Part shown: piece after piece, positions 1,121-28,200 of the stretch
Layout of the letters: every line of letters begins with the position of its first letter
Position numbering within the stretch: the first letter of the stretch is position 1
From: Bispira polyomma
Lineage: Eukaryota
NCBI GenBank assembly: GCA_965649765.1
Contig: OZ287757.1
Span: 16,616,001-16,680,000 of the forward strand
Reading direction: 5' to 3'
Length of the DNA stretch: 64,000 bases
Made by a program: the position numbers and the translations under genes
Notes under the pieces: generated by a model
Databases searched by the model: none
What the model saw: the letters and a program-made list of their open reading frames with translations, nothing else
Told to the model about the DNA's origin: nothing

Positions 1121-1254
1121 CTGTCGGTACTCAGTATTGTTAGCTGTGAGCTGCTGTAGTTGTAACACGTAGACCAAGGTGTCTTTACCCATCGGTTTGA
1201 TGGGTTGCCACGTGACCTCACAACTCTCCAGACTAATCTCACTCGCTACAGGTT
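1121..1254 (-). CDS. FNDC3: FNDC3 exon 22 (EPVASEISLESCEVTW...TEYRQ)
   Basis: ttccag| acceptor, |gtagga donor, phase 1 to 0. I found no further exon in 1-1120. Confidence 0.88.
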
Positions 1255-4200
1255 CTGGAATACAGTAATCAATAGGAGTCCTTAATACAACTTACTGTAT
1301 CTATAATTAATACAACTTACTATAGCTCTTATTAATACAACTTACTACATCTATGGTACAATAATCAACATGTCCTCACAGGCATACAAGGCCTGATTTA
1401 TACAACACTACTAAAGGAATATGCCATGAAATCATGGCCTTTTACCGGGAAGTTAATTAAGATTAGAGGCATAGAACCACAAAACACCCTCAATAATACA
1501 GAAGTTACTACAACGCTTACAATAAACTGCTACTAAAGTTTCCTCAGTGACACAATGCCTTATTTATACGAATTACAGATCTTTTACATATTTACCTGAC
1601 CAGTTACCACATTACCACCAAAGTATAAGCAAGTATTTTACACTCTCTTGTTACATATACTATGACTGTGTTAAGAGTACAAGTGATCTCAATGTCACTA
1701 GTAGTATCACACAAACACAGAGCCAAAGTATAAGCAAGTATTCTACACTGTCTTGTTACATATACTCTGACCGTGTTAAGAGTAGAAGTGATCTCAATGT
1801 CACTAGTAGTATCACACAAACACAGAGCCACTGACCTTTGACAGCAGGAGGAGGGGCTTTGGTGGTAGTAAAGGTGTAGTTCTGGGAGTAATCCCCCTCC
1901 CCAGCCTGGTTACGAGCATTGATGTGGAACGTGTATTCTGTCAGTTCCTGGAGACGGTTGATCTTGTGAGAGAGAGCCGTGCCTTGGTACACCGGGTAGA
2001 AACTATAATAAACACAAGTAGAACATGATTTACAACTACTGACAATCACTGGCTCTCACTGACATTATCACTACAACTATAGTAAACACAGGTACAGCAG
2101 CATTAACCACTACTGACAATCATTGGCTCTCACAGATATACCACTACATCATGTGTAGTGACTGATAACACACTCCCCTTTCACTTCTGCCATTGTAGGT
2201 TTAGTGGTAACACACTCCCCTTTCACTTCTGCCTATGTAGGTTTAGTGGTAACACACTCCCCTTTCACTTCTGCCAACGTAGGTTTAGTGGTAACACACT
2301 CCCCTTTCACTTCTGCCATTGTAGGTTTAGTGGTAACACACTCTCCTTTCACTTCTGCCAATGTAGGTTTAGTGGTAACACACTCCCCTTTCACTTCTGC
2401 CAATGTAGGTTTAGTGGTAACACACTCCCCTTTCACTTCTGCCAATGTAGGTTTAGTGGTAACACACTCCCCTTTCACTTCTGCCAATGTAGGTTTAGTG
2501 GTAACACACTCCCCTTTCACTTCTGCCAACGTAGGTTTAGTGGTAACACACTCCCCTTTCACTTCTGCCATTGTAGGTTTAGTGGTAACACACTCCCCTT
2601 TCACTTCTGCCAATGTAGGTTTAGTGGTAACACACTCCCCTTTCACTTCTGCCAATGTAGGTTTAGTGGTAACACACCCCCCTTTCACTTCTGCCAACGT
2701 AGGTTTAGTGGTAACACACTCCCCTTTCACTTCTGCCAATGTAGGTTTAGTGGTAACACACTCCCCTTTCACTTCTGCCAATGTAGGTTTAGTGGTAACA
2801 CACTCCCCTTTCACTTCTGCCAATGTAGGTTCGAATCTTGGTCCATACGTATATCTGATAAAGTTGGCAGTGAACTTGCTGAAGGCTGATGGTTTATAGA
2901 TATTACACATAAAACTGTTTAACCCAAAATAAACTCGGTGAGTCACTTACCTGCCATTATCCTTGAGGATCTCTAAACAATACTGCTGCATATCTGGATT
3001 CCTTCCCTCCCCCCACTTCACTTTGAGGCTGTTGGGTCCTGCCGCCATACACTCTACTTGAGGTGGAGACGGTGGGAGAGAACGAGTGCTCACTTTGACT
3101 GCTGGACTGAAACCTCCCACTCCAATAACGTTAACAGCTTGGACACGCACCCTACATAAACACAGAGAAATACTAACTGAAACCTCACACTCCAACACTG
3201 TTACCAGCTTGGACACGCACCCTACATAAATACAAAGAGAAATACTGACTGAAACCTCACACTCTTAACAGTCTCGACACACACCTTGTATAAACACCTG
3301 TGTACAGATGTCTTACCAATAAATAGTCTTAGGTAGTAAGTCCTCTATGTAATACACCTGTGTACAGATCTCTTACCTATAAATAGTCTCAGGTAGTAAG
3401 TCCTCTATCTAATACACCTGTGTACAGATGACTTACCTATAAATAGTCTCAGGTAGTAAGTCCTCTATCTAATACACCTGTGTAGATCTCTTACCTATAA
3501 GTGGTCTCAGGTAGTAGGTCCTCTATCACATACTCCTGTGTGTTGCCCACAGCTATCAGATGTTTCTCACCCAGGTCTATGTTATAGGACACGATGTCAC
3601 TCCCGTTACTCACAGGCTCTTTCCACGTTAAGTGGATAGATACAGCTGTAGCTGACGCTCTTACCGATACCACAGGACCAGGACTACTTGGCGGAGTGAT
3701 ACCAGTGGCAACGGGGCTGTAGGGGCCAGCTCCTGCACTATTTACAGCCTGAAGTACAAGTAACTTGGATTATATGTGATTTAATTTAAACTATCAGCAT
3801 TACACAGTCAATCACTTCTAACTTTACATTGTAGAACTCGATATCCAGTCAAAGTCCTTCAAACTAAAGAGTCAAACCTTTAAACATATACATTCAAACC
3901 CTAAAGCCAAATGACAAACAGATTTCTCGCATCTGTAATTTTATACATAGCACACTTAAAATGATTTATTTAAGAAAGCTTAAAGGATATCAATGTAATT
4001 TAGCAAAAAGATCATAAAAGGGAAGTCTATTTTGTTTGGTTACCTGTACTCTAAAACTGTAGCTGGATGCAGGAGTGAGACTCTTGACTTCATAACTCAG
4101 CACTGAACCCATGTGTAACTAAAACAGAACAACCAACACCTCTTAATACACCAATGTGTGCAGTTTATTTCTACTTACTTCAATACAAACACAATAGTTT

Positions 4201-7200
4201 TACTCAAAGGGAGGCTAAAAATAAGGTAGCAATTTATCTCTCCTAAGTCAGGTGATAAGTACATGTGCGTATGAAGTAAGTCTTCAAAAGCCATAAAGTA
4301 GGACAAAAAGTTCTACACTCTTAGGCCCTGTGACACATTCTCAGAGGTTTGCACTTAACCATATGCCCCAAAACTTTGCCTTAGCCCGTGCCCTTTAGAA
4401 AAGTCAAAATCACTTTAGTAGTTCTTGCGTAATCCTGCACACTGTTGTACCTTGGAGAAAATATTCACTCCCCATACTTTTTCTTAGTATGCCCTAGCCT
4501 CAATTTTTGCATGTAATCCTAGAGTCAAGTTTTTCTTTACTATTTGATCCTGTGGTACCTTGGTACAGGTATGCACTCCAGTATGTTTTTCCTTGGTCCA
4601 TGCCCAAGCCCGGGGGGTATAACAATTGCATGTGGCTCTGTATGCTATTGATTTACCTTGTACAAAATAGTACAATACACATGTTAGTTATAAACATTGA
4701 CAGAGGTTAGACTAAACATTTATAGTAAAAGTTTAATAAACTGTTCTCATATTGTTTTTATGAAGAACATATGGTGTACTTCTAAAGGCATTGAGTGAGT
4801 GACTTACCTGTATAAAGTCCTGGTCAGGTGCGGGTTGCCACTCCAGCCTGTACTCTGTGATGGTAGCACCATTGTTAAGAGGCTCCTCCCAGCTCACCAC
4901 TGCTGTGTGTGGAGATCTACACTGAACACAGGCTACTTTAGGGGGCTCAGGAGTGCCCGCCCCACTCACTAGCTCTAAGACATCTGACCAGGGACCAGCC
5001 TAAACACAACAAAGTCATGGTCAGTACATTGAACACATGCTACTTTAGGGGGCTTAAAAATGCCCGCCCCACTCACTAGCTCTAAGATATCTCACCTGGG
5101 ACCAGCCTAAACACAACATACACTTTTTGAAACAATACTATTGTAAATTGGAATTTATTTGGGTGAAAAATAGGGTCATATTTACAGACTAAATCAGTGT
5201 TTATGTGGTCTTATATACAACATAAATTTACATCACATTAAATATATACACTCGTGGTTAGAAACGTGGGATTCCAACAAAAAGTGTTCAACAGGTTACC
5301 ATTTAAAGAAAAAAAAAACTTAGTTTCTTATATACTTGACATGACATCACCAAGTCAAACTTGTAGTTCATATATTAAAATTATTAGATCTGTTTTATAG
5401 ATACAGTAGAACCTATATTGCAAGTGTAAGCTTTTGTTTGGATAACAGAAGGTTCAGATAATAGCCATTTTTGAATAAATCAATAGGATGAATTGGGGGA
5501 GTGGAAATAAGTTCACACAATTAAATATTTAGACAACAGTAGATTGGAATACTTATGATAGTAGAGTTTCTAGTGCCTATCTGCCAGCATCCTAAGGCCC
5601 CATATCTGTTTGTTAAGACAATAAAGTGCAGTGTCTTTAGAGCTACTTACCCCTGCCTTGTTGAAGGCCCTGACTTGGAAGAGGTAGTACCTCCCTGGTA
5701 GTAGTCCTGCTACCACACAGTCACAGTCCTGGCCCCGGTACACCTCCCTCGTACTGTTGTCAGGGTTAGTCATCAGCACCTCATACTCACTGATCCTAGC
5801 TCCCCCATCATAGTCAGGGTAATCTGAAACATCAACACTCAGAGGTTACAGGCTGGGAACACACATCTATAATGTTAATACACACTGATCCTAGCTCCCC
5901 CATCATAGTCAGGGTAATCTAAAACATCAACACTCAGAGGTTACAGGCTGGGAACACACATCTATAATGTTAATACACACTGATCCTAGCTCCCCCATCA
6001 TAGTCAGGGTAATCTAAAACATCAACACTCAGAGGTTACAGGCTGGGAACACACATCTATAATGTGAATACACACTGATCCTAGCTCCCCCATCATAGTC
6101 AGGGTAATCTAAAACATTAACACTCAGAGGTTACAGGCTGGGAACACACATCTATAATGTTAATACACACTGATCCTAGCTCCCCCATCATAGTCAGGGT
6201 AATCTAAAACATTAACACTCGGAGGTTACAGGCTGGGAACATACATCTATAATGTTAATACACACTGATCCTAGCTCCCCCATCATAGTCAGGGTAATCT
6301 AAAACATCAACACTCAAGAGGTTACAGGCTGGGAACACACATCTAAAATATTAATACACACTGATCCTAGCTCTCCCATCATAGTCACGGTAATCTGAAA
6401 CATCAACACTCAGAGGTTACAGCTGGGAACACACATCTAAAATGTTAATACGCACTCATGGTTATAAGGTTGCAGGTGTTGTCATTTTTTTGGGTATTGA
6501 TGACAAACTTAGACTCAAGCTATAACTAATCACTTGTTTCAGTCAGGGTAATCAGAAAATACACACAAGGTAAAGTCCACATTTTCAGTCACTCAAAATG
6601 TAATTGCTTATAAAAAACACAAAATGCAGAAGAAATAGCATCTGATTTTAAAAGCATGCAGTGCACATCTTTTCATAAATTAAAATCATAATGGGGAAAT
6701 ACTGTTGTTAGTAAAGTAGACCTTATTTTAGTGAACTACACAGTTTATCACAAAAAATTTCAATTGCAATGGATGTCACTTCTTTTACACAATAATGCTT
6801 GCTTTATTGGTGCCATTTTTATATAAACTTGCACCACTAACTCATAGACTACATGTGGCTTTTAAGATAGGTCCTGAGATTCCCTGTAAGTGTTGCCAAA
6901 CGTTTATTCACTGAGCACTAGCCTCTGACACACTGAGTTCTCCTGGTGAGACTGAACACTGTCTGCCCTCCTATGTCACATTAAGCACAGCACCACTCCA
7001 ATTTATTATATCTTCAAATAGATTTCTGGCAGTAGCGTCTGCACAAAACTTCTCACTGCTGTGAGGCACTTTTTAACTTGCCTACAGTGTCAGTTTACAT
7101 ATTTACAGACTGTTAACAAAATGGGTGGCAGGGCTGCTGATCCCACCTACGCACTGGGTCTAATACAAGACTATACAGAGGCCAAGGGTTAACTACTAAA

Positions 7201-10200
7201 TGGGCAGCCACCTGTCAACATCCATACTCCCTGTGTCTGCTCACTCCTATCTGCAGCAGCTATTTGGGTACCAAAAAAGGCCCCCAACAATTCCTCAGAC
7301 GAACTCTAGTACAGACAACTTAATAAAGAGCAGCACTCCTTTTTTTACATGTTGCTTTTATTATTTTTGTGTCCGGACAATTTCCGTATTGGCTACAACC
7401 TCTGTCTCTGACAACAAGTAGGTCATCTATTTCTTGTATGATGAACACAATTTATAGGCTTCTATATGGGACAAGTCCTACAGTTTCCACACTCATTATC
7501 CTTCAGTATTTAGTCAATTTGTCAAATTATGCGCTACATAAACATGAATGATGTCTTCATCAGTTGTGCTATCTTTTCTTTTCATAAACTGCATCACCAG
7601 TTTTTCTATAGAAATATCAATTTAACATTCACTTTACTTGGCTTGTAAAAACTTATTCTTTTTATGCTCTTTTACAGCCATGGATACAGTTACAACAGGA
7701 TTGTCAGTGTATCACAGAAAACAGATGTCAGGAAAACTAGTAAAACCTAGAGCTTCTCAGGGAAAGCAGAAATCAGATACATTTAGGACTGGTAGTGTAC
7801 GTCTGTCTCCACAAGTACCATTTTCGCCAATCCATGCGATGGCGATTTGTTTCCTCCTTATAAATTATAGAGAACTGTCTCCACACACACAAACCCACTG
7901 TACTATTTGCGACTGCTATAAAAGTTTTTGCTTCTGGAGGGGAAATTTTCGCATCAGACAGTAAAAATCGTACAGAAGTGATCTTATAAACAATATTAAA
8001 TCAATTAAAAGTCTTGTATCCCATGTACCAAATAACACTATAGAGACACAAACCACACATATGTATCGCAAATGGTACGATCGTACATCGCCAGATGGTA
8101 CTTGTGGAGACGTACACATAGTCTGAACACTTCATTTTTACACCATTTTGAGTACTTTAACCATAGTATCAAAAGGAGATCATGAGAGCCTTATTTTGAA
8201 AACTACTAAAAGACTTTTACATGTTATCTCAAAATTTGATATTTCCTATATATATATTTTTTTGTAAATTCTGATAAAGTAATGCTGCAATTATTTTACT
8301 TTTTGTACTTAATTTTTGTTACTTTATTGGAAACACTTTTACTATCTGACACAAGGAAGCTGTATCTGGGAGTTTGTTTTCATTCTTCCTTTCAAATCTC
8401 CACATTTCATCCTTGTTTATTATATTTATTGTTTGTTTTTAATCTGCTACAAAAGTGTCAGTTTTTTAAAACTTAGAATTACCAGAAACCACATAGAGCC
8501 AAAAACAGCAGATACTAGTGACCTGACACTGTGTAACTGTCAAAACAACAGATAACAAACAGTTTGGAATTTTAAATAGCCACTTCCACACAGCCCTCTC
8601 ATTTCTGAGAAAAATGCCAACAGCCATCTGACCAACTTATAGAGATACATCTCGACAAAAACTGCTTGGTCTTTGTATGACAGGGTTTTCCTTTTTAGGA
8701 TACACTTTTTAGGTGTATATCACAGTTAGGGAGGATTGGGTAAATCTGGTAATGGACCACAAGATTTAACACAACTGACAGTAGCCCCTTTTTTACAGTA
8801 AACAACAACACATCCTTCAAACATGGCTTTAGGCTCTACAGCCTGTATTCACAAACCACTGACTCCCAAAGCTCACATCTCAGGAAACACTTTCTGTCTA
8901 TTCTGCTTCTACTGCTAGTTCACTGTCCAAGGAAATTAGAGCAGGCCAGTTAGTGATCAAAGTTTTCTGTGCTGCAAACAACCGGCCTTCAGTAAGTCCA
9001 CTACCAATTCCCACATACATACCAAGAGCTGAGATTTGAACCCAAGACTGAAGAGGTGTGACCAATATTTAACCTCTACACCTCCAAGACCCCTTATCTC
9101 TAAGGAAATTTAATTTTTCTTATTACCATCTATGCATAATGACTGAATGCAGCAATATGCCTAAGATACTGTGCCTTGTGTATTGGGAAGTATGACTGTA
9201 TCAAAAAGTAGTTACAGTATTCCATCTGGCTACAAGTTTTATGTACACCGATCTTATTACATGTTTCTTTTTCCAGAGTTCTGAAGATGACAAATCACTG
9301 TAACTTCACCTTTTTCAATTGTCTCTCATCTATTTATAGCAAATTTCTTATAATTTGACTCCAGTTTTTGGAGAATCCTGTGTTAGTGATAAGAAAACAT
9401 GAGGCACTTCCCAATTGTTACTATACATCATCTTCAGTTATTTCCCATTTCAAACAGACCGGGAAGGTTGTAACTTTTCACTTGAGATAACTAGTTTATC
9501 ATAACAAGAAAAGTGCGGCCCATGGCCGCTGACTAGTTTGCTATGCACATGCCTAAGGCCCAATTTCTGGGCCGCATAATTGAAATTGAGATTTTATCGT
9601 AAAACAGTGAGAAAAAGAATGAAAACTAGCAAAAAATAAATTTATTTTGATCAGGGCGATTTTGTCCAAGTTATAGGTTGGAGATGAAAAAAAATATTAA
9701 ATTTCGACCAGGGCGATTTTGTTAAAGTTATGGTTGGAGATAAAAAATAAAAAAATGTGGCTATATCGATATTGTCCAAGTTACAGGTTGGAGACAAATT
9801 TTTTTTTAAAGTATGACGAGTATGATTTTGTGCAAATTATAGGTTGGGGACAAAATAAAAAAAAATTTACCAGGGCGATTTTGTATAAGTTACAGGTTGG
9901 AGAAAAAAAAAAAAAAAAAAGCAGTTTTAATCAGGGCGATTTTGTCTAAGTTATAGATTGGAGACAATTGTTTTATTTTGATCAGGGCGATTTTGTGCAA
10001 GTTACAGGTTAGAGATGAAAAAAGGACATTTTCAACAGGGCAATTTTGTCCAAGTTATAGGTTGGACAGAAAAAAACAAAACAATTTTGACCAGGGCGAT
10101 TTTGTCTAAGTTATAGATTGGAGACAATTGTTTTATTTTGATCAGGGCGACTTTGTGCAAGTTACAGGTTAGAGATGAAAAAAGGACATTTTCAACAGGG

Positions 10201-13200
10201 CAATTTTGTCCAAGTTATAGGTTGGACAGAAAAAAAAAAAACAATTTTGACCAGGGCGATTTTCTCCAAGTTATAGATTGAAGACAAAAAACAAGATTTA
10301 TGTAATTTTAGAGCTACCTCCCAAGATTTAGGCGATTTTAGCTTACAATTTTTAGAAGGAACTGAAAGCGGGGCTTTTAAAAACCGTGTACAAAATTTCG
10401 GTTCCCTTGTTGTCGGCTGTATGTTGTCAATAATAATTTTGAACGATCTTGCCATAGGTAAGTACTAGAATATACAGACACAGCAGACTTCCGGAAACAC
10501 GTTGAGATTTCCGTTTTCTTATCGTTTCGAATTATTTTGTAAAATTGTATCCTAGAGTTTAACCGAAACTGACGTCATAAACAGAATACTTCAAAACGAG
10601 GTTGTATAACGCAAGGAATATCCCAACTTTTTTGTTATAAAAAGCCCAATATTTGCGGATTCGTTATTTGAATCGATCCCCAAAAAAATCTGTAAGCATA
10701 AGAGATTGAACTTAAGATTCTATGCGAATTTCAGACCATAACTCCCTACCAGTTTCAAGATTTGCTTGTCGACACGTCTTGTACACTTTTTCCATCTTTT
10801 CGAGTCCTGCTATGAACTAGTTTGCACATGCGCAGACTTGCGCAATATGCAAACTAGTTAAAAAGCTGGATATTGTCCTGGTTTTATACTTGACAGACTA
10901 AATTAGTCAGATCAGTTTGTGCATACATGTATCTACTATGTACTCTGTACCAATATAGAAAAAAAATGGATCATGAATCACTTCACATTAAATTTAAACA
11001 AGTCATTTCTCTCAGATCTTTGGTACAATAAATCACAGAACGGAGAATCAGTATATACTTACTCCATCTTAAATGCAATGACATGGCCCTTGGTTTGCCC
11101 AGCAACTTGGGTACATGGCAGTTGCCCGGGACAACAGCCTGGGTTGTGACGACTAGACATTCTGACCACTAGAAAACATAACATGTCAGCTAGTGTATTG
11201 ACAGAATAAAAATTAAGGTGCGGGCTTTAAATACTTCCAGACAATAAATGCTTATTGACAGATTAAATATAGCAGAGGCCAGGTGATTATTGTAGTTGTA
11301 TTTGTTATGTTCAAAGGTCTGCTCATGAACTAACCTGTACCAGTAACTGATACCTACCTAGATATTTTTATATTGTTTGTTTTTCATTGTAAAGTGTAGC
11401 TAATTCTGAGAATAGTTATAAGCAGTCATAAACAACCTTATCTAATCACTCATCAAAAGTTTAAAGTTAGAATATGAGTGGAATAATTTTACAAACAACA
11501 ACACAATGATAAGTAATGACACATGATAATACATGCGTTTGTAGTTATTGTACCAGGGACTGTGTCCTACAATTAGACTGACAACCTGTCTTATTGCCTA
11601 TGTCAGCACATGTCACAAGGCTTGAGATAGGGAGCAAGGTCCATCTGGCATAATACCAGTGAACTAAGTGGGCCCCGTGCTTACCTCAGATGTTCCTCCT
11701 ATAGTATGACACCTGGCCCTGACCCGGTAGGAGTGGCCAGGCTCAAGCTGATCACAGGTAAACTCTCTCTCTACACCCTCATAGCGCACCTCAAACCCTG
11801 GAATAAAGACACCCAAGATATACCTCACTGTAATACACATTACAAAGGTAAACTCTCTACACCCTCATAGCGCACCTTAAACCCTGGAATACAGACATTC
11901 GTACCTCACTGTAATACATAGACACATTACACAGGTAAACTCTCTACACCCTCATAGCGCACCTCAAACCCTGGAATACAGACACTCGTACCTCACTGGA
12001 GTCAAGAGTCAAGGTGTTTGAGGAGAGTACTAGCGGAACAATTACATATTTAGAAATCAAATACAGTTGAACCCCTTCCCATCTAACCTTAAGGGACCAG
12101 GAGCATTACTTCTACTTAAGCAGGATCTACACATATTAGGGTAGATTTTAAAGGAAAGTGCCTTTGTAGGATCACAGTTTTTTTCTCTGCATAAAAGGGG
12201 AAATTGCGTCAACAGATATCCATATAAAGAGGTTCAACTAAACTAGTGAACAAATTTTACATTACATGCGAGACAAGAACTGTAAGCTTGTTTTGAATAA
12301 TCGTACAGGGGAAATAGCATTGAAGCCAATATACAGTACCATTAGTCCAAACTCTCCATTATGTGTAAATTAAATGAAATCATTTGCCTTGTTCACCAGT
12401 CCCCAGCAATTTAAACGTTTTTTTAAAACATTATGATTATAACCTAAACTTTAAAGAACTGGGGTTACTTACACTATATATGTCATGTATAAAGTTGTTC
12501 ATCTGTATAAAAACATGGCAGCCTTAAACTAAGAATAACTATAAACAGCAACTCGCATGTCAGAGTTATATTATATGAACATGGAACTCACATTAAAGTT
12601 ATCAGTCCTAATTATTGTAGAAACAGCTCAGATCAGTTCTTTGTAACATTTACTATATATTAAAGATGAACTGTGAGAAAGTAGATGAGAAAAGTGCAGA
12701 GGAGCAAGGCTGTACCAAGCTAGTATAACAGTCTGGTCACAGAGTTCACATAGCTAGTTTACACACAATTATGAGGAGTGAAATAGGAGCTCTACATGGA
12801 GGAGAAAACAGTGCAGTTAGAAAGAGAGGAAGGTTTAAAAACACACACAAAGTACAGCTCCCTTCACAACAAGGTCACATGCTGAGGAGAAAGCTCCAGA
12901 GGAGAGAATGGCCCCCTAACTCCATCTACACAGTTCACTGGTTCATGCTCCCTCCATGCATGTGTGTGTGTGTGTGTGTGCGTGTGTGTCACAGATGTAC
13001 AATACATTACAACAACCACTACTTATAGATTACATCAATTAAATAGACTGTCATGTACTCAGCACTGATGTCTATAAACCATATCTAAAGACTATTAGTC
13101 AGGGTAACATTCAATATATACAGTACAACCTCTATTTTATAAACTTCTATTATCCAAACATTCAATTTTATGAACACTTTATTGTTTATTACTATTATAG

Positions 13201-16200
13201 ATTTTTAACGCGCTTTATTGATGCTAGGCATCTTCTAAAGCGCAACAGTTCAACACACACAACTAGTTACAATTTGTTATTATTTTATATTAAAATAGCT
13301 TATGAAACTTCTATTAATGATACATTCTCGCTCTCCAAACATGTTTAAGGAAAAATAGAGGTTATACAGTATCAAGATTTGTAAACAACAAAACGAGTCC
13401 TGCCATTTCAAACTGTAGTGGCAATGTTTGCTCGCCATATTAAAGATCTCTCAATATTTCAAATATAGATAGCAAACAGCGAGATATTCAAGGCATGCAT
13501 CAATATCATCATGTGAATGGTGGATCATAGGAAATACAACAGTAAAACTCCCTGCTTGACATCATGCAAAGTTCACACTAAAGTAACTCCTCTTCCAAGA
13601 AAAGATAGACATCTGATCAAGTCTTGCAACACTCCTAGCTTACAACACCAAGCACTAACAACTCCACTGCACACAACATACATCTACAACACTTTGTCAT
13701 CATTACCATCGCCTTTTAGTGCACAAAGTGAAAAAATAAAACAACTTATTAAAATACAGTGCTTTACAATGTTTTTAATATAAAATTCTTAATCCACAGT
13801 CATGTGCCACAAAAACAACATCTTTTTGCATGGAGAGATTAAAACATAGCAGATATTTATTAGCAAGTTTTCTATTTGTCACATATATTTAAACTTTACA
13901 AACTTTCACTGACATTGCTCTAAAGGGCAGTAAACATTACAGTTGTATACATACCTCTTCCTGCATCCACTTCTAAACAGTACTTGGTGATTTCTGTACC
14001 CCCTGTGTCTCTGGGTGACTCTATAAATACATTAACACATAAATCAATACTTGGTGATTTCTGTACGCCCTGTATCTCTGGGTGACTCTATAAATACATT
14101 AACGCATAAATCAATACTTGGTGATTTCTATTTCCCCTGTATCTCTGGGTGACTCTATAAATACATTAACACATAAATCAATACTTGGCGATTTCTGTAC
14201 GCCCTGTATCTCTGGGTGACTCTATACATTAACGCATAAATCAATACTTGGTGATTTCTGTATCCCCTGTATCTCTGGGTGACTCTAGAAATACATTAAC
14301 ACATAAATCAATATTTGGTGATTTCTGTACCCCCTGTATCTCTGAGTGACTCTATAAATACATTATACTATCAATACTTGGTGATTTCTGTACCCCCTGT
14401 ATCTCTAGGTGACTCTAAAAATACATTAACACATAAATCATTACTTGGTGCTTTCTGTACCCCCTGTATCTCTGGGTGACTCTATCAATACATTACGCTA
14501 TCAATACTTGGTGATTTCTGTACCCCCTGTATCTCTAGGTGACTCTAGAAATACATTGACACATAAATCAATACTTGGTGATTTCTGTACCCCCTGTATC
14601 TCTGGGTGACTCTATCAATACATTAACACATAAATCAATACTTGGTGATTTCTCTACCCTCTGTATCTCTGGGTGACTCTATAAATATATTATACTATCA
14701 ATACTTGGTGATTTCTGTACCCCTGTATCTCTAGGTGACTCTATAAATACATTAACACATAAACCAATATTTGGTGATTTCTGTACCCCTGTATCTCTGA
14801 GTGACTCTATAAATACCTTATACTATCAATACTTGGGGATTTCTGTACCCCCTGTATCTTTGGGTGACTCTATATATACATTAACGCATAATTATTAAAT
14901 CAATACTTGGTGATTTCTGTACCCCTTGTATCTCTAGGTGACTCTATAAATACATTAACACATAAACCAATATTTGGTGATTTCTGTACCCCTGTATCTC
15001 TGAGTGACTCTATAAATACATTATACTATCAATACTTGGTGATTTCTGTACCCCTTGTATCTTTAGGTGACTCTGTAAATACATTAACACATAAATCAAT
15101 ATTTGGTGATTTCTGTACCCCCCTGTATCTTTGGGTGACTCTATAAATACATTATACTATCAATACTTGGGAATTTCTGTACCCCCTGTATCTTTGGGTG
15201 ACTCTATAAATACATTATTCTATCAACACTTGGTGATTTCTCTAACCCCTGTATTGCTAGTTGATTCTGTAAATACATTAAAATATTAAACACCAGATAT
15301 ATACTAAATCAATGACACAGCTTATCTAACGATTATCATACTAGTACAATCCCCACAAAACATTCCTCTCAAAACAATGCTATATTATATGGAAGCTATT
15401 TCAAAACTATAATAGAAGCAGATATACATCTGTTTGTTCCGAAATCATGTAGTGCTAAACCCAATATAGACTTTGCTATGTTTAAACTTTCAAACATATA
15501 AAAACTTGTACATTCCAACAGACTTTACAATACATGTTTTTGTTACTTCTACTGATGTAACAGACTAAATTCTCTGTCTGCTAAGCCACTTGGTACATGA
15601 AGCAGTTTGATCTTCATGCTGTAATTCTGTGCAAGGCTTGCTATAAGAAAAGGTCAACACACTCTACTATAATTCTAAGAGACTGGTTAAGTAATACTAT
15701 ACATGAATCCTGTAAAGAGTTCAAACTCATTATCTATTCACAAGAACTACACGGAAATTATACACCTTCCTCCAGTTTCTCAAAGTAATAAGCTGATTCA
15801 CACAAGGCCAAGTCTAATTCTATATTAAGCAAATCCAGATCCCGTTATTGAACTGTAATATGAAGCCCAATTACACTGTATTTATATCATTTTTCAGTGA
15901 TCCATTACAAAAGACTTGGCTCATTAACATGACTGCTTAGTAACATGTAAACAAACCTCAAGTTATTAAACAATTTTCTTTGATGTGTTACTGGACAGAT
16001 GACAAGCTAATGGCTGGACTTTGTGAATTTGACAAGTTTCCTGTGAAAATTGGTGAAAATTTGTTGCTTTATATTAATATAGGACATTTGTCTTTTGAAT
16101 TGGCATGTGCATTAAGCAGAATTGAAGTGACTCTATTATTTGCTATTGATGTGATTCTTACCCCAGGTTATATGGGAGCTGTGCGAGTGTTTGCTATTTG

Positions 16201-19200
16201 TGTGATTCTTACCCCAGGTTATATGGGAGCTGTGTGAGTGTTTGCTATTTGTATGGTTCTTACTGCAGGTTATATGGAAGCTGTGTGAGTGTTTGCTATT
16301 GGTATGGTTCTTACTGCCGTTTATATGGAAGCTGTGTGAGTGTTTGCTATTTGTATGGTTCTTACTGCAGGTTATATGGGAGCTGTGTGAGTGTTTGCTA
16401 TTTGTATGGTTCTTACCCCAGGTTATATGGGAGTTGTGTGAGTGTTTGCTATTTGTATAGTTCTTACCCCAGGATATGCAGAAGCTGTGTGAGTGTTTGC
16501 TATTGGTATGGTTCTTATCCCAGTTTATATGGAAGCTGTGTGAGTGTTTGCTATTTCTATGGTTCTTACTGCCGTTTATATGGAAGCTGTGTGAGTGTTT
16601 GCTATTTGTATAGTTCTTACCCCAGGATATGCAGAAGCTGTGTGAGTGTTTGCTATTGGTATGGTTCTTATCCCAGTTTATATGGAAGCTGTGTGAGTGT
16701 TTGCTATTTCTATGGTTCTTACTGCAGGTTATATAGAAGCTGTGTGAGTGTTTGGTATTGGTATGGTTCTTATCCCAGTTTATATGGAAGCTGTGTGAGT
16801 GTTTGCTATTTGTATGGTTCTTACTGCAGATTATATAGAAGTTGTGTGAGTGTTTGCTATTTGTGTGATTCTTACCCCAGGTTATATGGGAGCTGTGTGA
16901 GTGTTTGCTATTTTTATGGTTCTTACTGCAGGTTATATGGAAGCTGTGTGAGTGTTTGCTATTTGTATGGTTCTTACTGCAGGTTATATAGAAGCTGTGT
17001 GAGTGTTTGCTATTTGTATGGTTCTTACTGCAGTTTATATGGAAGCTGTGTGAGTGTTTGCTATTTGTATGGTTCTTACTGCAGGTTATATGGGAGCTGT
17101 GTGAGTGTTTGCTATTTGTATGGTTCTTACCCCAGGTTATATGGGAGTTGTGTGAGTGTTTGCTATTTGTATAGTTCTTACCCCAGGATATGCAGAAGCT
17201 GTGTGAGTGTTTGCTATTGGTATGGTTCTTATCCCAGTTTATATGGAAGCTGTGTGAGTGTTTGCTATTTGTATGGTTCTTACTGCAGGTTATATAGAAG
17301 CTGTGTGAGTGTTTGGTATTGGTATGGTTCTTATCCCAGTTTATATGGAAGCTGTGTGAGTGTTTGCTATTTCTATGGTTCTTACTGGAGGTTACATAGA
17401 AGCTGTGTGAGTGTTTGCTATTGGTATGGTTCTTATCCCAGTTTATATGGAAGGTGGGTGAGTGTTTGCTATTTGTATGGTTCTTACTGCAGGTTATATA
17501 GAAGCTGTATGAGTGTTTACTATTGGTATGGTTCTTACTGCAGGTTATATAGAAGCTGTGCGAGTGTTTGCTATTGGTATGGTTCTTATCCCAGTTTATA
17601 TGGAAGCTGTGTGAGTGTTTGCTATTTGTATGGTTCTTACTGCAGGTTATATAGAAGCTGTGTGAGTGTTTGCTATTTGTATGGTTCTTACTGCAGGTTA
17701 TATAGAAGCTGTGTGAGTGTTTGCTATTTGTATGGTTCTTACTGCAGGTTATATAGAAGCTGTGTGAGTGTTTGCTATTTGTGTGATTCTTACCCCAGGT
17801 TATATGGGAGCTGTGTGAGTGTTTGCTATTTGTATAGTTCTTACCCCAGGTTATATGGGAGCTGTGACAGTGTTTGCAATTTGTATAGTTCTTACCCCAG
17901 GATATGCGGAAGCTGTGTGAGTGTATCTTGCCCTTGAGCTGAGGTTTACTTGGAGGACAGGGTCTGTCTGGCAATGTCTTGTAGCAAACTGTAGAGCTGT
18001 AGTTTGAGCTGCCCTCATCATTGCTGGCCTGCAGCTGGAATACACACCACAACACATTGTAACCACCAGATATACATTGTAACCACAAGATATACATTGT
18101 AACTACCAGATATACAGTCAAAGCACCTTAAAGGACTTTACATAGAGAAGCAGTTGGAATACACAACACAATGTAACTACCAGATATACAGTCAAACCAC
18201 CTTAAAGGACTTTACATAGAGAAGCAGCTGGAATACACAACACATTGTAACTAGGGGTGAGACGGGGCGAAATATCTTTCTTCGGGGAACCGCGTACAAA
18301 AAACCGAGTCGGGTCCGGGTAACCGTAAAATGTGTGTGCTGGTAATATACATATAAAATCATATAAAAACCTATTTAAATGTGGGAAAAGTTAAAGAAAA
18401 CTAAGAAACACCAAATACAGTACTTTCTGTATGTAAAACAAGCCATATTGACTTGTATAAGTATTCACAAGAAAGAGTACTTACCGGTGTCACCATGGAA
18501 ACAGGAAATGAAGAGGGAATATACTATAACACAGAATACAGTAAAACTAGTATTTTCTGCCACAGGTAAGAGATGGATGTAAGGACAAAATAAAATTAAT
18601 AAGTAAAAAAAATAAAGAAACATTGTTTTATTTCATGTGACAATAAAAATCGTACCTGAAGCATTACAAGTGCTTGCAAAAGCTGAATTTGTCTCTATTC
18701 TCGACATTTTAGAGAATAAAAAAAATTGTAATATGAACACAAGTTCATACATAATTCATAGTTCATACATTATTGTCTTTTTAATTTTAAACTGCACAAG
18801 TTCATACACCATTATTGTCTTTTTAATTTTAAACTGCACAAGTTCAAACATCATTATTGTCTTTTTGTTTATTTTACAATAAAATATAGTTCTTCAAAAT
18901 TCAGTCAAACTTTGGCAGGTCTTCATCATGTTCTTCCTTAACCTCAGTGGTCACTACATCAGTTAAAATATTTTCTAAAGCTTGACCTTCAACACTTTCT
19001 AAGGTTCTACCTGAGCTTCCAAACTTTGAAACCTCAACACTGGTACAAGCTTTTTCCCCTGGAAGTTAAAGTTTGGCATTGCGATTAAGAAAAATTATTT
19101 GGTCAACAGTCTCTGAGTCCAGGGCCGATCTTAATTTGGTAATGGTTTGGCCTGCTGTAGAAAAAGTTCTTTCTGATGGAATTGAGGTGGCAGGTATTGC

Positions 19201-22200
19201 CAGGTATTTTCTTGCAAGTTTTGAAAGTTTAGGAAATTTATTCTGATGTTGTGTCCACCATTCTAGAGGACATGACATTCGTACTGGTTCAGCCAGGTAT
19301 TCATCTAGCTCTTTCTCAACAGAGATACTATAATTTGAATTGTTATCACTGTCACCTTTAATAATATCCAAAATTTTTAACTTTTTGGTAGCAGGAGCAT
19401 TGGCAGCTTCTTCATTTTTTAACTGTACAACTTGACCATGGTCAGACTCAATTGTATGCAATAATTCTAGAAGCCGATCTTTCAATTTTGAAAACTTAGC
19501 CGGAGGCAACGTATCTCTGCCAATTACAGACTTGTACCGAGGATCCAGTATGGAAGCCAGGAGCAAAGGAGAGTTAGAAATAATCACATCATCAGGGATG
19601 CCCTCACCATTTAGTTTAAATTTTTTCTGAAAGCCTTCACAAATTTTATATTTAAGATCTTTCACAACACCTGAATCTTCTGTACAAGCCTCAAGAATAC
19701 TTGATATCATACTTTGCAGTAAAACATGCACAGAGCTACCTGTAGGGCTAAATTCATTCCCTAAAATCTCGGTCACATCAGCCAGAGGTTCCAAAACGGG
19801 GGAAATATCTTCCATGACCTTCCAGAAAGAGTCCTTCAGGTCAAGCCGGACACGGTCACCAGGCTTGGTCAAGGAGTCATCAAAAATTACGCTATAAAGT
19901 GGAACACGAAGTTTCAAAAGGCGTTCCATCATAAAATATGAGGAATTCCAACGAGTTGGAACATCTTGAACTAACTTAAGCCTTTGACCACCCTCTTGCT
20001 TTGAAATTAATGCGTTGGTGGACAACACAGAATGGCTAAAATGACCTACCAACCTTCTGGCTGCCCCTAATGTTTTTGAAATTTGAGGAAGTTTAAGACC
20101 ATCCTCGATGGATAATTGCAAAGTATGAGCAAAGCAAGGAACATGGGCAATGCTGAGTTCTCTGGCAGCAATGCCCATGTTACTGGCATTGTCAGTGACG
20201 ATGGAGGAAACCTGGTGTATCTTGAATTCTTTACAAATTTGATCAATCTCTGAGGCAATATTGGAACCTGTGTGTCTATCTTCAACAACACGGGTGGCAA
20301 CCACACTTGAATTTAACTTCCAATCACTAGAGAGGAAGTGGCCGGTAACTGTAATATAGACCTGCAGGGCTGTACTTGTCCATAAATCTGACGTTAAAGC
20401 AAGGCATTGACTCTTAATCTTCTCTACAAAGGACTCTTTTTCTTGATTATAAATGATTTCCAAGTATTTTCCGACAGTTTTTCTGCATGGAACCCTATAC
20501 TGGGGATTTAAGGCATTTACAAATTGCTTAAATCCCTGGCCCTCTACAATACTTAATGGCTTCAAGTCTAAAGCACACATAATTGCAATTTTTTTTGTGA
20601 TCCCCTGCTGATGGGCCTCAGACAAGGTAGTACTTCTTTTAACAAAGAGGATAGGGTAGACTGCTTGGCTACTGGCCCACTCACTCCACTGGATGTATCT
20701 TTGTTGAGCTGCACCCCAGGATGTTTAGAGGTCAGGTGACTCCTCATAATGGAAGTATTTCCCCCCTTGAAAATGCAAAAATTTAAGTTCACTCCTATCT
20801 TTGGATAATCAAATTTGAAAATCGAAATTATTGATGTCAAAATTGTAGCTTAAAAAATTAGTTTACAGCAAAAGCATACCTCTGAAAGATAAAGATGTAG
20901 CACATAGACTACATTTTGTCCTTGTCTTGTCCTCATTCACCTCGAAATACTGCCACACAACACTTCTCTTAGATTCCATATCTATATTTTATCTAATCAA
21001 CAGATTCAACACTAATCTAACTAAATTCCATATAATATAAAATTATAAAGAATGTGGATATATTGATTTCTAAAATTTACGTCATGAAATTATCGGTTAC
21101 CAGCTACCCCCACGTCACAGCAGAAGATTTGGATTTTACGGTAACCATGGAACAGGAAGTGTGGTTTTTCACAGGTATACTTAAAGGTACTGAAAGTGCT
21201 AAATGGCCAAATAAAGACAGTAAAACATAAAGAAATAAAGGGATTTCACATATTTTATTAAAAGGTATATAGTATGGTGTATTTTATGAGGAATCTTTGC
21301 GAGTTTATTATACAAACGGACAACCGGGTAGTAATAGCGGACCCGCACAATAAACAAACCGAACCATCTTTCGGACACCGGGCCCCCTGTCGCACCCCTA
21401 ATTGTAACCACCTGATATACAGTCAAACCCCCTTAAAGGACTTTACATAGACAAGCAGCTAGAATACACAACACATTGTAACCACCTGATATACAGTCAA
21501 ACCACCTTAAAGGACTTTACATAGACAAGCAGCTAGAATACACAACACATTGTAACCACCAGATATACAAACTACTTTATACGACAATGCAGGTAGTTAA
21601 CCGTGTAGCACATAAATTTGTATCCCTGTGGAGGAAGCTGTTTTTACTACATTTTTTACACTAGATATGACTTTCCATGCATTTTTATGCTAACATATGG
21701 TAACATGTGATAGGAAGAAATTGGTGAACACTTTTTTACTTAAAAGTATGAAAATATGCACACAAAAAGAGTGACATTGAGCTCCCCCATATATCATTGT
21801 GTATTACACAACTTTTATAAAGAAAACTCTTTGTTTTACCTGTCAGATACCTACATCACATTTTCTAGTTTAATATGGTTAACAAAACAGTTAAATGACA
21901 AAAAGTGTATAGTTATCACACCTAAATGACAACTAAAATCTTGAGACCGAAAGTATAAAGGTGCAATAGAAGTAATCAGGTCAATACTAATGATATTCAC
22001 AGCCGTTCTTAACCAGGAGAGATGTTACACACTATCCATTATGGATATCTCACGCTTGCATGCCAATTAAGTACACAACAGAACAAGGTCAGTGTCCCTT
22101 TTATACTGGTTTCCACACTGATGACAAAGTCTAGACTGATTCCTGGCTAAGAGCATCCACTTTTGGACCCAGTCTAGCACTACCAATCAATACACCCCAT

Positions 22201-25200
22201 CAACCCACAGAACATCTGTTGCCAGTTTCTAAAAATAATACTGGTGAACCACTACTGCAGCCCTTTTTATTCCTGCTGGATAGGAAAAGCTAGAGAAATG
22301 GGAACTTCTACAGCAAGAGACTTCACACCAAATTAAACACTAGTATGGATGATGTTATCAGTGAAGCTAAACAAAAAGTACTTGTCAATGATTCAAATCT
22401 TTCTAAATAATCAGCACTCTTACAATTAATGCTCACAAGTAGGTTTAGAACTTGTTTCTGAATCTAACAGGGATCCATGAAGTTGACAGGTGACACTGGA
22501 GAGGACAGTATATATGATCAGTTAGTACAGAAGGCTCTGTATAGGTTAAATGTCCAATATCCACAGAATTGGATTCCGGTTATAGCCAACTTCCACTTAC
22601 ACCCAGTTTATAATAGTATTCTTGAATCTTGGGACCAGAAATTTTTTACAATTTATACAGAAATTGAATTCTACTGTCACTAGCTGCAGAGTGAACAAAA
22701 TTAACTCTATGTTTTAGAGGATACACTGTGCAGACCTATACCAGTTTCCCTACATTTGAGAGGATCACCTGATACACTGTACCCTACTACCTGCAGTGTG
22801 ACAGGATGACCAGCACCGAGTCCATTCTTACCCTAAATTTGTACTCTGTGTTTCTTCTCAGGTTCTTAATGGTATAATACAACTCTGGGCCATTGTAGAC
22901 TGTCAGAAACCCATGGCCCTGAAAAAAGAGGACTCAAATCTTAATTACAAAATTAAAGACATCCCCCTCAACATTTTAACCTAGGGTTTGGGGCTTTGCC
23001 CTAAATAATACACTTGTTATGTGTTTTGATGTATTTTAAAGAATTTTGTGCAATTATGCATGTTGGTTTTGCTTTACAACTACTCGAAAATAACAAATTT
23101 TAATAACAGTTTATTCAATGAATTTGATGCCACGTTGAAACATAAGCAATTGGTGTGATAAAAAGTGCTCCAATATACAGTAGAATCTTGATTATTTGAA
23201 ACCCGTTTATCTGAAAATCCAGATTAACCGAACCCAAAATAATGTGCCCCAATTTTTAATACATTTCCTTATACAAATCAACTCTGTGGATGATAATAGG
23301 GGATTTTACTGAAATACTTTTCTAAGCAAGTATATATCATTTCTTTTATTGTAAAGCATTTAATTATGTTATAAAGCTACTTGCAATGTATTCATTCATT
23401 AAGGCAGTATTAGTGTATATTGCTAACCAAACAAATGGGGACAATGAATGGAAGAATTGTAGTAAAAGCGGGACATACTGTAAAGATTAACATCATCCAA
23501 TTGCCGCTTATATCATGTTAGTGAAATTAATACAGCTTTTTACAACAGACAAGTAATCAAAACGTATTGTTGCTGACCTCAGAAAACAAACTTCAAACAA
23601 ATATTTAACTTCTACTTCACCCTGAAAGTATTATATTAATAAAAAGACCTCCATCTTAAGCGTTTTCCTTGCTTAGTACACACTTTTAGGTGAACATTGA
23701 AGTTAACACGTTAAAATCTTCCAGATAGGTTGGAATAATCAAGATTCTACTGTATTGCAATAAAACCAGATGGTGATTTACTTAATTTTAATAAGATTAA
23801 TACAGATTTAAATTTTTAATTGGAATTAATTTTCAATATGCAAGTTGATTACTAAAATTAATTCCCACTGAAGATTTGCAGTTATAAAATGGTTACCGTG
23901 GCTTGGTCTTCCATCTGCAGGGTAAACTCATCATCATTCTGTCGGTTCTTGCTCCAGGATAAAGTCAAGGCCTTCACAAACTGTTCTGACAAGAGGGGAG
24001 CTTCTGGCTGTGACGGAACTGAACCACTGGTGCAGAACGCTACAGGTTCCGAGAACTCACTGAAATAGAACACATATACTTGGTGAACAAATAGACATAA
24101 ACAGGAGTATTATTTAATAAGTACTCCTTACATTGTGAGTTGAAATACAACAAATCCACCTCAAAAATAGATGGACTCTGAATAGTTCTTCACCTCCCAT
24201 ATCAAAGCAAAACTCTTTGCAAATATACATTTAATCTTAGTTACAATATAATACTAATAGGTTATTGTTACTAAAGAGTCTGATTTAATTTATATCTGTG
24301 ATCTCTGGTAGAAACTACAGTGGAGCTACTATTATCTGAATTTCAATTATCATTTGATTTCATGAACATATTTCCACTTTCCACTCTCTTAAGCTTTCTG
24401 TAATGTTTTACATTAAAATAGTTCTTCTATGTTATAAACCTCCCATTTTCAAGACAAATTATTGCTCTATCAACATGTTCGTATATTACAATTTTTTAAA
24501 TTTTATGTCATCAATCTTTCAAGTAACACCAGGTGATGACAGTTTGCCACCTGAAATTTTTACTTTTATTGGCTGGGAGGAGATATTGTCTATGGTAACC
24601 AAATCTGTCTCTTTTAAAGTTATTTACACAAGGGAGTTATTTGTATAATTTGTCATATTCCCAATTATGTTAGGATATTAGAGGTTCTAGTGCAGTTAGT
24701 TTTAGCAATGTAAGATTTGTACCTTTTCCCTATGGAATTAATAGCAGCTAGTCTAAACGTATAGCGTGTGGAGGCAGCTAGTTTTGTAACCTTGTACTGT
24801 CTCTGTAACCCCTTGTAGACCTCCACAAACTGTAGACTTCCCATACCCTCATCAAACTCCAGACTGTAACTGCTCATCTTACACCCATTGTCAACAGCTT
24901 GCTACAAAATACAAAGTAAAATCAACACCACCTAAAACACCTACAACCCGAGATATTGGTCCGGGAAAACTCCTGGAAAGTTACTAGCCAATGGGAAAAG
25001 TTTTGAATTTGTCTTAAATTAAGGTAACTAAAGTTAAATAATTCCTTGACCTCGTAAGAAAACAAATGCTCTTAACATTATGGTCAGTTTAAAATGTTTT
25101 ACCTTGAAAAGTTACTTGAACACAGGCTTTTAAGTTTTGTAACTTGCTAGACCACACAAGAAGTTAATAACTTAATAGCAGTGGGCAAGGGGTACTGCAG

Positions 25201-28200
25201 TAAAATCACCCACTGATAAAATATGGCAGAGGAAATACACAGAAAACATGGTTCACTAATCACTACAAATATGCCTTATAAAACCCACTGTCCTACAAAA
25301 ACACAATTCACATTTCAATATTAATAATGTTCAAGAGTACTTTTCTAATGGGTAAAGTTCACATTTTTATATTGTTTTATATGTCATTTTAAATTTAAAT
25401 GTAAACATTAGAAAGATAGACAGCTTTACTATAATTGAAAACAGATGTAGTTCTGAATCACAAAGGAAAAAACAAAACAATTTTATTGAAGTAGTTTTGT
25501 TCAAGTACATTTCAATATTAAGCATCCAACCACATAGTGCATCATAGGTTCAGCTTCTCTACTTGTTCAATATGAGAAAAGTGCTGCATACATAATGCTG
25601 TTGTATCTATAGCAAGCCACTTTATAATTCTAGATTCTTTATATAAAAGTCCTACAGAGGCAAAGTGGGATCAGTTGATTTGTATACAGTGAAACCCCTT
25701 TAAGTTGAACATCAAGGGACCACAACAAATACTTCTACTTAAGCAGGGTTTTCACTTATCGGGATAGATTTTTTTTCATATAAAAGAGAAATCTACAACA
25801 AAGTTCTACTTAAGGGTTTTGACTGTATTTGTAAAACCAGTTTCTTCCACATTCAGTGTGATGCTCTCTGACTTTGTGTGCTGTGATTGATAGCTCCATG
25901 ACACAAGTAAACACTTTCCCTGTTTGTTTGACAGGCTCCCATTATGACACATTCTGTATTGCTCCCCAATCAGTTATAGAACCCTGGCTTGATAAACAGC
26001 TAGTTGACTAGTGGTCAGATAAATGGCACAAATAGCCAGTTCATCAGGCTTCAGATAACTGGACTAGACAGTAATGTTATTAGTGACCCTGGATTGGAGG
26101 TTGATTAGTTTGTTATTTAGACAAGAAAACATACCTTCAAAGATCTTTGGAAGAAGAGAAAAACATACCAAATTAAACTTATACAAGAATCAAATCTATT
26201 ACCTTTATATATGGCAATTTTTTCTGTCACAGATCTCAAACTGCCATAACATCCTAATCATAGGCAATACACCTAATAAAGAGGGTTATAGAGGCCCGGG
26301 TCTTACACAAAAAGAATGGCTTTGAGAATGCTCAGAGTATCAGGTAGAAATGGACTAATAACAATACCAACAACAGCAGTGATTTATGGGAAATTCTGAA
26401 TGTTCTAAAATCCCATCTGTATTATCATTCAGGAGACCCCACACCCTATTACCTAAATGCATAGTCACACCTCATATTGATGTTTGACCTTGGAATTATT
26501 ACATTAACCTTATCCCTTGGGTCAACATCTCTCAGTGGGCATTTCCATGCAGGCAAATAGCGACGGCAATCAGCCAACGTTCGATGACGTTGGGCAATTG
26601 AAAATTTTTATGTGTCCAGAGAATTATATAAGAAAACTTAATACCCATAGTTAAGCTTATAAATTTTACCCATTTCTCAACCGAGTTTGATGCAACAAAA
26701 AGCACAATAAACCCAATAAAATAAGCTTTCTCACCATATTTTCACAAAAATTTTACCTGCTCTAATTATTGAGTTATTAATAAAGAATCGGCAATGTTTA
26801 CACGGTGACCGCCCATCAGCGTTGCTCGCATAGAAACACTTACTTATAAATCAATGAAAGTGATAGAATTGTTGTCGGTCATGGGCTGGTCGCTTCAGAA
26901 AATTTCCTGCATGGAAACCCTCACTTACTTTGAGAATGTCTAAGTCATTTATATAGTGCTTGTGAAGTCATTAAAATAAAACAATGGATTTTATCTGTTG
27001 AATTCCTTAAACGGTGCTAAAACAGGGCATTTTATGGAATTTCCTGCAAAATCACTGGTACTTCACAGAATCGGTTAAAAAATATACCACTTTTAAGCTA
27101 AAACTTCACAAAAACATTCCCTTTTTTGAACAATCAAAGGTGGGTGGGTACCCAAGTTTGGCAGAATAAAAACAATAGCTTCCCAATACTAGGTTTTTGG
27201 TTGTATTATCACACTGTACACAGTTACACACAGGGTACTGAGATCTTGATATAGAATGCAACAAAATGTAGTAGGATTCCCAGAAGCTGTAACACAACAT
27301 TAATGTGTGTAAACAATGGCCAGGGAGGTGTATAATTGTTGTCTGGAAGCATACATAGACTGACTAGTGGGGCTGATGAGCCAGCCCCACTAAGTGCCTA
27401 ATGCATTGAAAATATCTACAGCAAAGCCAAACTACAACCACTATAGGCTCCTCACTTTTCATCTGTGTGCTTCCACTGTGAGCACCAGCTGTTCAAATAT
27501 TATATACACATGTTCTAGGCTTCAATCTTTATATTTATAGAATAACTACATGTAGAAATTTATAAGTGTAGAGAAGCTTCAATTACACCAAACCATCACC
27601 TTTCTCTAAGATATACATATTTAGGCTCAACCAGAATAGCCATTGATTAGTTACTAGGTGGGTTTGGCATCTGATTGCAAAAAAAAAAAAATGGGTATGA
27701 TAGTAACAAGGACAGTAGGCTATATACTAATACGTTTATGGGCTATGTACTACACAAGCACAGCAACACCTATATATTCTACTGCCTTGAGTTGATAATG
27801 CAGGCCATACTTCACCCCAACAGAACAAACTAATGTTTGGCATTCTTTTATCTTCTTATTACACAGCTTAAATACTCTGAGTAACAAGCAAGATGCCAGA
27901 AAAAAAAACGTGAGACCTTGTGATAGATGAAATCCGGGAGCACGGAGTATACACTGCACATTACAAGACCACTACTCCTCATCAATTTACAAACACCTTA
28001 TAACAAACACTCTGTCTTTCCATGCTTTAAATGTAATGGTTAGATCACCGGAAAATGAATATGAAAAACCTTTGTGCAAGACCTTAAGCCTACATTCTCA
28101 TGTACGTGATTGTCAACAACCAACGGCCAATATGTGACAGGGAATGTTTTATATCTTTATTATTTATCTTTATTTATTCTCATGAATGTGATTTCTAGCA

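Follow-up and report, generated by a model that had tools for sequence, protein, structure and literature searches.

A 20-unit minisatellite spanning the acceptor of an FNDC3-like exon in Bispira polyomma is probably a tolerated mirage repeat

The host gene and its repeat-filled intron

The window analyzed here, a stretch of 64,000 nt from the assembly of Bispira polyomma (contig OZ287757.1, here C10:16616001-16680000), harbors an FNDC3A/B-like gene on its minus strand (Table 1). An exon query yielded nine proteins, four of them named FNDC3A or FNDC3B, and matches to the Pfam family fn3 as well. For a KIF19 exon of the same genome, the best named hit was in an annelid (82%), followed by molluscs (up to 78%) and by echinoderms and vertebrates (no more than 76%), so that, judged by best hits, the host is probably a lophotrochozoan. 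The mapped exons from 34413 to 1121 join as one open frame. Upstream of 34413, the frame is broken across a 6.8-kb gap (41767–34953, minus strand), hence at least one exon is unmapped. The 66-nt exon of interest is 54% and 63% identical to the FNDC3 homologs P0001 and P0003 in tblastn and is in frame with its flanking exons. It is the 12th of the 21 mapped exons; with at least one unmapped exon upstream, its designation as exon 13 in the initial annotation is plausible. The introns on either side measure 3875 and 2157 nt. Skipping of this exon would keep the frame and would therefore not feed nonsense-mediated decay (NMD).

The 3875-nt intron upstream of the exon has tandem repeats at both ends, a donor array next to the preceding exon and an acceptor array next to the 66-nt exon. 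Decoy sequence amounts to 1757 + 1269 = 3026 of the 3875 nt, close to the ~3.1 of 3.9 kb estimated initially.

Table 1 Features of the FNDC3-like locus, in coordinates of the window
Feature	Position	Strand	Basis
FNDC3A/B-like gene with at least 21 mapped exons	1121..56423	(-)	homologs FNDC3A/3B, fn3 Pfam, exon model
Upstream 139-nt FNDC3 exon; the donor ladder starts with its own donor	17896..18034	(-)	
Intron, 3875 nt, ~78% decoy repeats	14021..17895	(-)	exon model, alignment
Donor mirage, 51 nt x 35	16139..17924	(-)	TRF
Acceptor mirage minisatellite, 20 units	13974..15281	(-)	TRF, unit alignment
Decoy exon starts 1–10	15266, 15203, 15140, 15072, 15009, 14943, 14869, 14806, 14740, 14678	(-)	
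Decoy exon starts 11–19	14611, 14544, 14481, 14414, 14351, 14284, 14221, 14154, 14087	(-)	
TTGAT resembling a branch point, 24 nt upstream of the true acceptor	14043..14047	(-)	motif scan
True FNDC3 coding exon of 66 nt (phase 1-1), contributing to an FN3 domain	14020-13955	(-)	in-frame joins, tblastn
Other duplicated FNDC3 boundaries, donors	near 56422, 3495	(-)	junction duplication test
Other duplicated FNDC3 boundaries, acceptors	near 34413, 11797, 5823, 4999, 3151	(-)	junction duplication test

Anatomy of the acceptor array

TRF detected the acceptor array with a period of 67 nt, 19.9 copies, 85% matches and a score of 1830. The unit list and alignment resolved it into 20 units of 62–74 nt on the minus strand, corresponding to 19 decoys plus the true exon, which confirms the ~19 near-identical acceptors that had been noticed ahead of the 66-nt exon. 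Each unit consists of the 3′ tail of the intron, ending in AG, followed by ~41 nt of the 5′ part of the exon. Unit 20 alone runs on into the final 25 nt of the exon and its donor.

This arrangement is that of a mirage, a head-to-tail tandem repeat with a unit spanning an exon–intron boundary. Its last unit forms the real end of an exon in an intact gene, and many units carry the splice dinucleotide, AG in 19 of 19 decoys and GT in 27 of the 34 decoy donors of the facing array. The unit is minisatellite-sized and locus-specific; when we searched the genome (1.035 Gb, 75 contigs) with it, all 19 matches among those listed lay inside the window, which is a lower bound. The array is internally homogenized with a diverged edge: copy 1, the outermost, agrees with the exon in 31 of 40 positions, the other copies in 36–39.

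According to predicted splicing, all 19 decoys meet an in-frame stop codon when joined to the upstream exon. The initial annotation had proposed that nearly every copy keeps an AG and 40 nt of the exon and then reads ACC AAG TAT TGA. The AG and the stop are indeed universal, but the exact in-frame motif is present in only 9 of 19 decoys. A TGA lies at the same position in 14 of 19, decoy copy 13 has its stop one codon earlier, and copies 3, 5, 8 and 9 are frameshifted by the length of a G-run, with stops 59–128 nt in. The invariance of the AG is unremarkable, given that 18 of 68 pairs of adjacent columns show no variation among the 19 decoys. The decoys differ by substitutions and indels, including amino-acid-changing differences and the mentioned frameshifts. 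Fixed differences at +14 and from +41 on distinguish them from the true exon. Judged by these amino-acid changes, the G-run frameshifts and the losses of donor GTs, the decoys are decaying rather than constrained.

A run of 3–6 G is present in every array unit; it is derived from the exon and is found in the true exon too. The TTGAT at 14043..14047 is a candidate branch point by sequence, and the TGA within it is at the same time the “poison” stop of decoy 19. A motif resembling TTGAT also lies in the unique intron upstream of array copy 1. The “poison” TGA is probably ordinary intron sequence.

The donor array at the opposite end of the intron

The donor ladder consists of 35 units, as annotated initially, but not of 35 intact donors: GT is retained in 28 of 35 units (7 of the 34 decoy donors lost it), and the 9-mer of the true donor is matched by 11 of 35, the true one included. 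The ladder is in frame with its exon and stop-free over 586 codons, hence it is not poison; a later ladder donor, if used, would insert repeats instead of triggering NMD. Its translation consists of 17-residue units rich in His, Ser, Asn and Thr. Selection for the lack of stops was considered and dismissed, as chance suffices to explain it: with 29 distinct variants and 6 of 153 single changes that would make a stop, the probability of finding none is ~0.31, which is not significant. Base-pairing between the donor and the acceptor ladder, looping out the intron, was rejected as well, because blastn gave no match between them on either strand.

Splice-site strength and the choice of the true acceptor

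The local strength of the acceptors does not suffice to distinguish the true site. In leave-one-out scoring, the true acceptor reached 4.3, the weakest of 20 FNDC3 acceptors and the tenth lowest of 105, based on a matrix that includes 85 automatically called sites, some of them miscalled. Eight of the 19 decoys scored as high as the true acceptor or higher, and three are identical to it over 23 intronic nt; over this stretch decoy 18 is identical and decoy 19 one nt off. These results support, as a proposition, the initial view of the intron as a natural test of exon definition, in which 19 near-identical upstream rivals stand against a weak 3′ splice site, making the array a usable natural substrate. 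Such tests have precedents in human F7 IVS7 and CBS 844ins68, which have already been used in this way.

The strongest donor-like site within the array scored 5.9, versus 8.5 for the true donor. The decoy donors lie upstream of the decoy acceptors, so that they cannot pair into a pseudo-exon. Without a strong donor of their own, the decoys would be extended to the true donor, and the predicted exons measure 133 nt for decoy 19, 200 nt for decoy 18 and 267–1312 nt for the other 17. Exons of ordinary size would thus result only from the last acceptor (66 nt) and at most the two nearest decoys, and from their sequence decoys 19 and 18 are plausible leak points. Of all 20 sites, the true one is predicted to be the most open in its local fold, with an unpaired probability of 0.57 versus 0.14–0.49, a weak hint that the decoy acceptors may be hidden by the fold. 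By analogy to CBS, the G-runs between the acceptors could help the choice, too. With long introns, human splicing was reported to favor the sites separated by the least distance across the exon, and the preference for the upstream 3′ site under exon definition was described there as only “significantly reduced” (PMC9225289); these thresholds stem from human cells, and the host considered here belongs to another phylum.

Boundary duplications are common at exon ends in this genome

To place the array in context, we looked for duplicated junctions at further exons. Of the 41 boundaries mapped in the FNDC3-like gene, 9 have their junction 24-mer repeated on the intron side. After subtraction of both arrays of the focal intron, 7 of 39 remain, which exceeds a terminal-copy rate of 3.7% (p=0.0005). 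As an independent sample, we chose 100 myosin and kinesin exon loci, of which two were dropped because their exon was identical to that of L010, yielding 98. The three myosin loci L010, L011 and L012, located on contigs C11, C8 and C13, have identical exon translations, suggesting a recent segmental duplication or a mobile gene copy.

In this sample, the junction test, curated by eye because the automatic acceptor calls missed L035 and L038, identified duplications at 29 of 196 boundaries (10 acceptors, 19 donors) in 28 of 98 exons. Candidate rows lacking a plausible splice site were dropped (L008, L027, L092, L031, L043, L065 and L072). TRF arrays were found at 20 of 196 boundaries, while permutation led us to expect ~9 (combined z=3.9; 14 vs 6.2, P=0.002, in a set of 58 loci and 6 vs 2.8, P=0.049, in a set of 40). 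With automatic site calls, 12.5–13.6% of the boundaries were duplicated, compared with 3.3–3.6% under the terminal-copy null (p ~1e-7). There was no excess over the rate of any outward duplicate in the nearby intron, 11.5–12.7% including the mirage arrays themselves (p ~0.4). The enrichment hence depends on the null chosen, and its cause may be that arrays persist when pinned by an exon, and not a mutation hotspot.

Mirages are therefore not special to the focal intron but common at exon ends in this genome. More than one in four sampled exons has a duplicated boundary, which provides many arrays for tests of exon definition in an invertebrate and is also relevant to gene annotation, as decoy copies produce partial homology hits. 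Elsewhere, too, there are arrays of the length of the two in the focal intron, such as 47 nt x 35 (L023), 40 nt x 34.5 (L053) and 58 nt x 16 (L035). Among arrays of at least 10 units, a threshold picked after seeing the data, 11 are located at donors and one at an acceptor (p=0.006), so long acceptor arrays may carry a cost.

We also followed the reading frame in 15 other acceptor arrays with a total of 42 decoys. Two decoys lost the AG, 36 lead to a stop, three to a frameshift and one stays in frame. Thus, 39 of 40 AG-keeping decoys break the frame; a premature stop is the default outcome, and the term “poison” is not meaningful for it.

Comparison with known boundary repeats

Tandem duplications of exon boundaries were described as mirages in amphioxus, among them those in Adh3 and the globin genes BflGb6 and BflGb9 (PMC3087553) and in troponin C and PGBD5 (PMC3902484). 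According to RT-PCR, they appeared to leave splicing undisturbed despite the AG or GT retained in many units (PMC3087553, PMC3902484), and the most diverged unit lies at the edge (PMC3087553). The FNDC3 array resembles that of BflGb6 in repeating the 3′ end of an intron together with the 5′ part of an exon. As in the amphioxus mirages, many units, if not all, retain the splice dinucleotide, the edge unit is the most diverged one, and donor and acceptor forms occur in one gene. It differs in its host, probably a lophotrochozoan, in having 20 units instead of the 3–6 of BflGb6 and in that arrays fill both ends of one intron; moreover, it is known from DNA, while splicing was followed by RT-PCR in amphioxus.

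Three human loci are comparable. CBS 844ins68 is a ~68-bp duplication of an acceptor junction that introduces nonsense codons; the distal site is used, and G-runs help in this (PMC2630376, PMC1802585, PMC11017215). The FNDC3 array shares with it the nonsense codons brought in by the upstream copy and the G-runs between the sites, but has 20 copies instead of two, and its G-run stems from the exon and is also present in the true exon. In the 37-bp VNTR of F7 intron 7, the first unit spans the exon–intron boundary and the later pseudo-sites are silent (PMC1557585), matching the 51-nt donor ladder. F7 is, however, a case of a donor and not of an acceptor, and the 5′–3′ scanning shown for it, which favors the first site, leaves the choice of the last acceptor unexplained. 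The VNTR in ABCA7 intron 18 leaks by one unit and alters isoforms with its length (PMC5954066). It is likewise a boundary repeat with a splice site in its unit, and the retention of one unit leads to a premature stop; it lies on the donor side, and an effect of its length on splicing was demonstrated. In the literature searched, which covered few subscription journals, we found no genome-wide survey of mirages and no report from an annelid. The FNDC3 array is a further case of the mirage repeats already described, and with those known from amphioxus and analogues in human, the single locus matters little by itself.

Origin and tolerance of the array

We consider the array a mirage that is tolerated as a by-product rather than a built-in switch, with a probability of about 80%. 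It would have originated from one short boundary duplication at the FNDC3 exon, spanning the acceptor, and was likely amplified to 20 units by slippage or unequal exchange. Because only the last copy keeps the downstream donor, the full exon must be the last copy. The stop codon would be the first intron-derived codon past the unit junction, having arisen at one junction and then been copied along. The spliceosome presumably picks the acceptor nearest to the exon's own donor, through exon-spanning pairing with the donor at 13955, so that the array is likely tolerated. The G-runs between the acceptors and the more open local fold may assist, and rare use of a decoy would be cleared by NMD as noise. 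This reading builds on what was observed directly: how the units are built, that the decoys decay, that the gene is intact and how often such repeats occur in the genome.

Several points may speak against tolerance and for a leaky but unselected array, in which a measurable part of splicing goes to the nearest decoys or skips the 66-nt exon in frame, and array length shifts FNDC3 output as a side effect. These are the weak true acceptor, equaled or exceeded by 8 of 19 decoys, the near-identity of decoy 19 and the identity of decoy 18 over 23 nt, the lesser hold of the exon-centric rule on 3′ sites (PMC9225289), the scarcity of long acceptor arrays (1 vs 11 at donors) and the example of ABCA7, for which one-unit retention and exon skipping were reported (PMC5954066). 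On the other hand, amphioxus mirages and CBS 844ins68 yield normal mRNA, the numbers of all boundary duplications do not differ significantly (10 acceptor vs 19 donor, p=0.14), and FNDC3 itself has more acceptor than donor arrays (6 vs 3). We regard a leak of this kind as unlikely. A wider reading, that boundaries seed or retain duplications at ~4x the intron rate, that long acceptor ladders are purged more than donor ladders and that copy number tunes FNDC3 via decoy use and NMD, appears improbable to us; the same doubt applies to its corollary that a 20-unit ladder before a weak acceptor belongs to a rare, costly class. If it were true, thousands of arrays would constitute a genome-wide natural experiment on 3′ splice-site choice.

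The initial annotation had further suggested an NMD-based dosage control, that is, a selected poison cassette with decoys kept to send part of the FNDC3 transcripts to NMD in a regulated manner. The retention of AG in every decoy and the premature stop to which each would lead, well upstream of later junctions, agree with this, as does the ~78% of the intron made up of decoy sequence. A broken frame is also predicted for 39 of 40 AG-keeping decoys elsewhere, however, where it is the default, and the stop here goes back to one copied junction and lies inside a branch-point-like motif with a similar counterpart in the unique intron. The donor ladder of the same intron is stop-free, exon skipping stays in frame, and comparable arrays exist at ~15% of the sampled myosin and kinesin boundaries. 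Nor is there a discrete cassette or alternative site under constraint: strong donors are lacking, the AG invariance is ordinary and the units vary. The proposed dosage control is thus unsupported and highly unlikely. Hardly credible at all is an assembly artefact, with an inflated or mis-joined repeat. Three sequencing runs, found by a query with an exon-containing FNDC3 stretch (window 3480–3790), all belong to a single study and may derive from the very sample behind the window. Their contigs over 13000–14060 extend over the intron as well as the exon, as expected of DNA, and in all three runs contigs bear variant units at the exon start with changes of the same kinds as in the assembled decoys. 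The assembled units moreover differ by ordered substitutions and indels and have long and short tails. Summed contig depth over the unit relative to the flank was ~21–26x in X1/X2 and ~11x in X3, values that do not represent a copy number.

Further repeats in the window

Another donor mirage, 75 nt x 6, lies at an upstream FNDC3 exon (56038–56489, minus strand); the unit length is divisible by three, and the majority of copies are in frame. Minisatellites away from any mapped exon boundary were found at 2166–2831, 9641–10291, 30515–30876, 48124–48575 and 55257–55576. At ~13110–13260 we noted a short, high-copy interspersed repeat that matched thousands of contigs in all three runs. Finally, a hAT DNA transposon of 3149 bp with terminal inverted repeats is located at 18252–21400 on the minus strand, with an open transposase frame of 551 codons (19072–20724; Pfam Dimer_Tnp_hAT) and an 8-bp target duplication (21408–21401 and 18251–18244). 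The transposon lies amid a 74-nt repeat copied from the acceptor of the exon starting at 18034 and splits this array into two parts, at 18094–18253 and 21401–21569.
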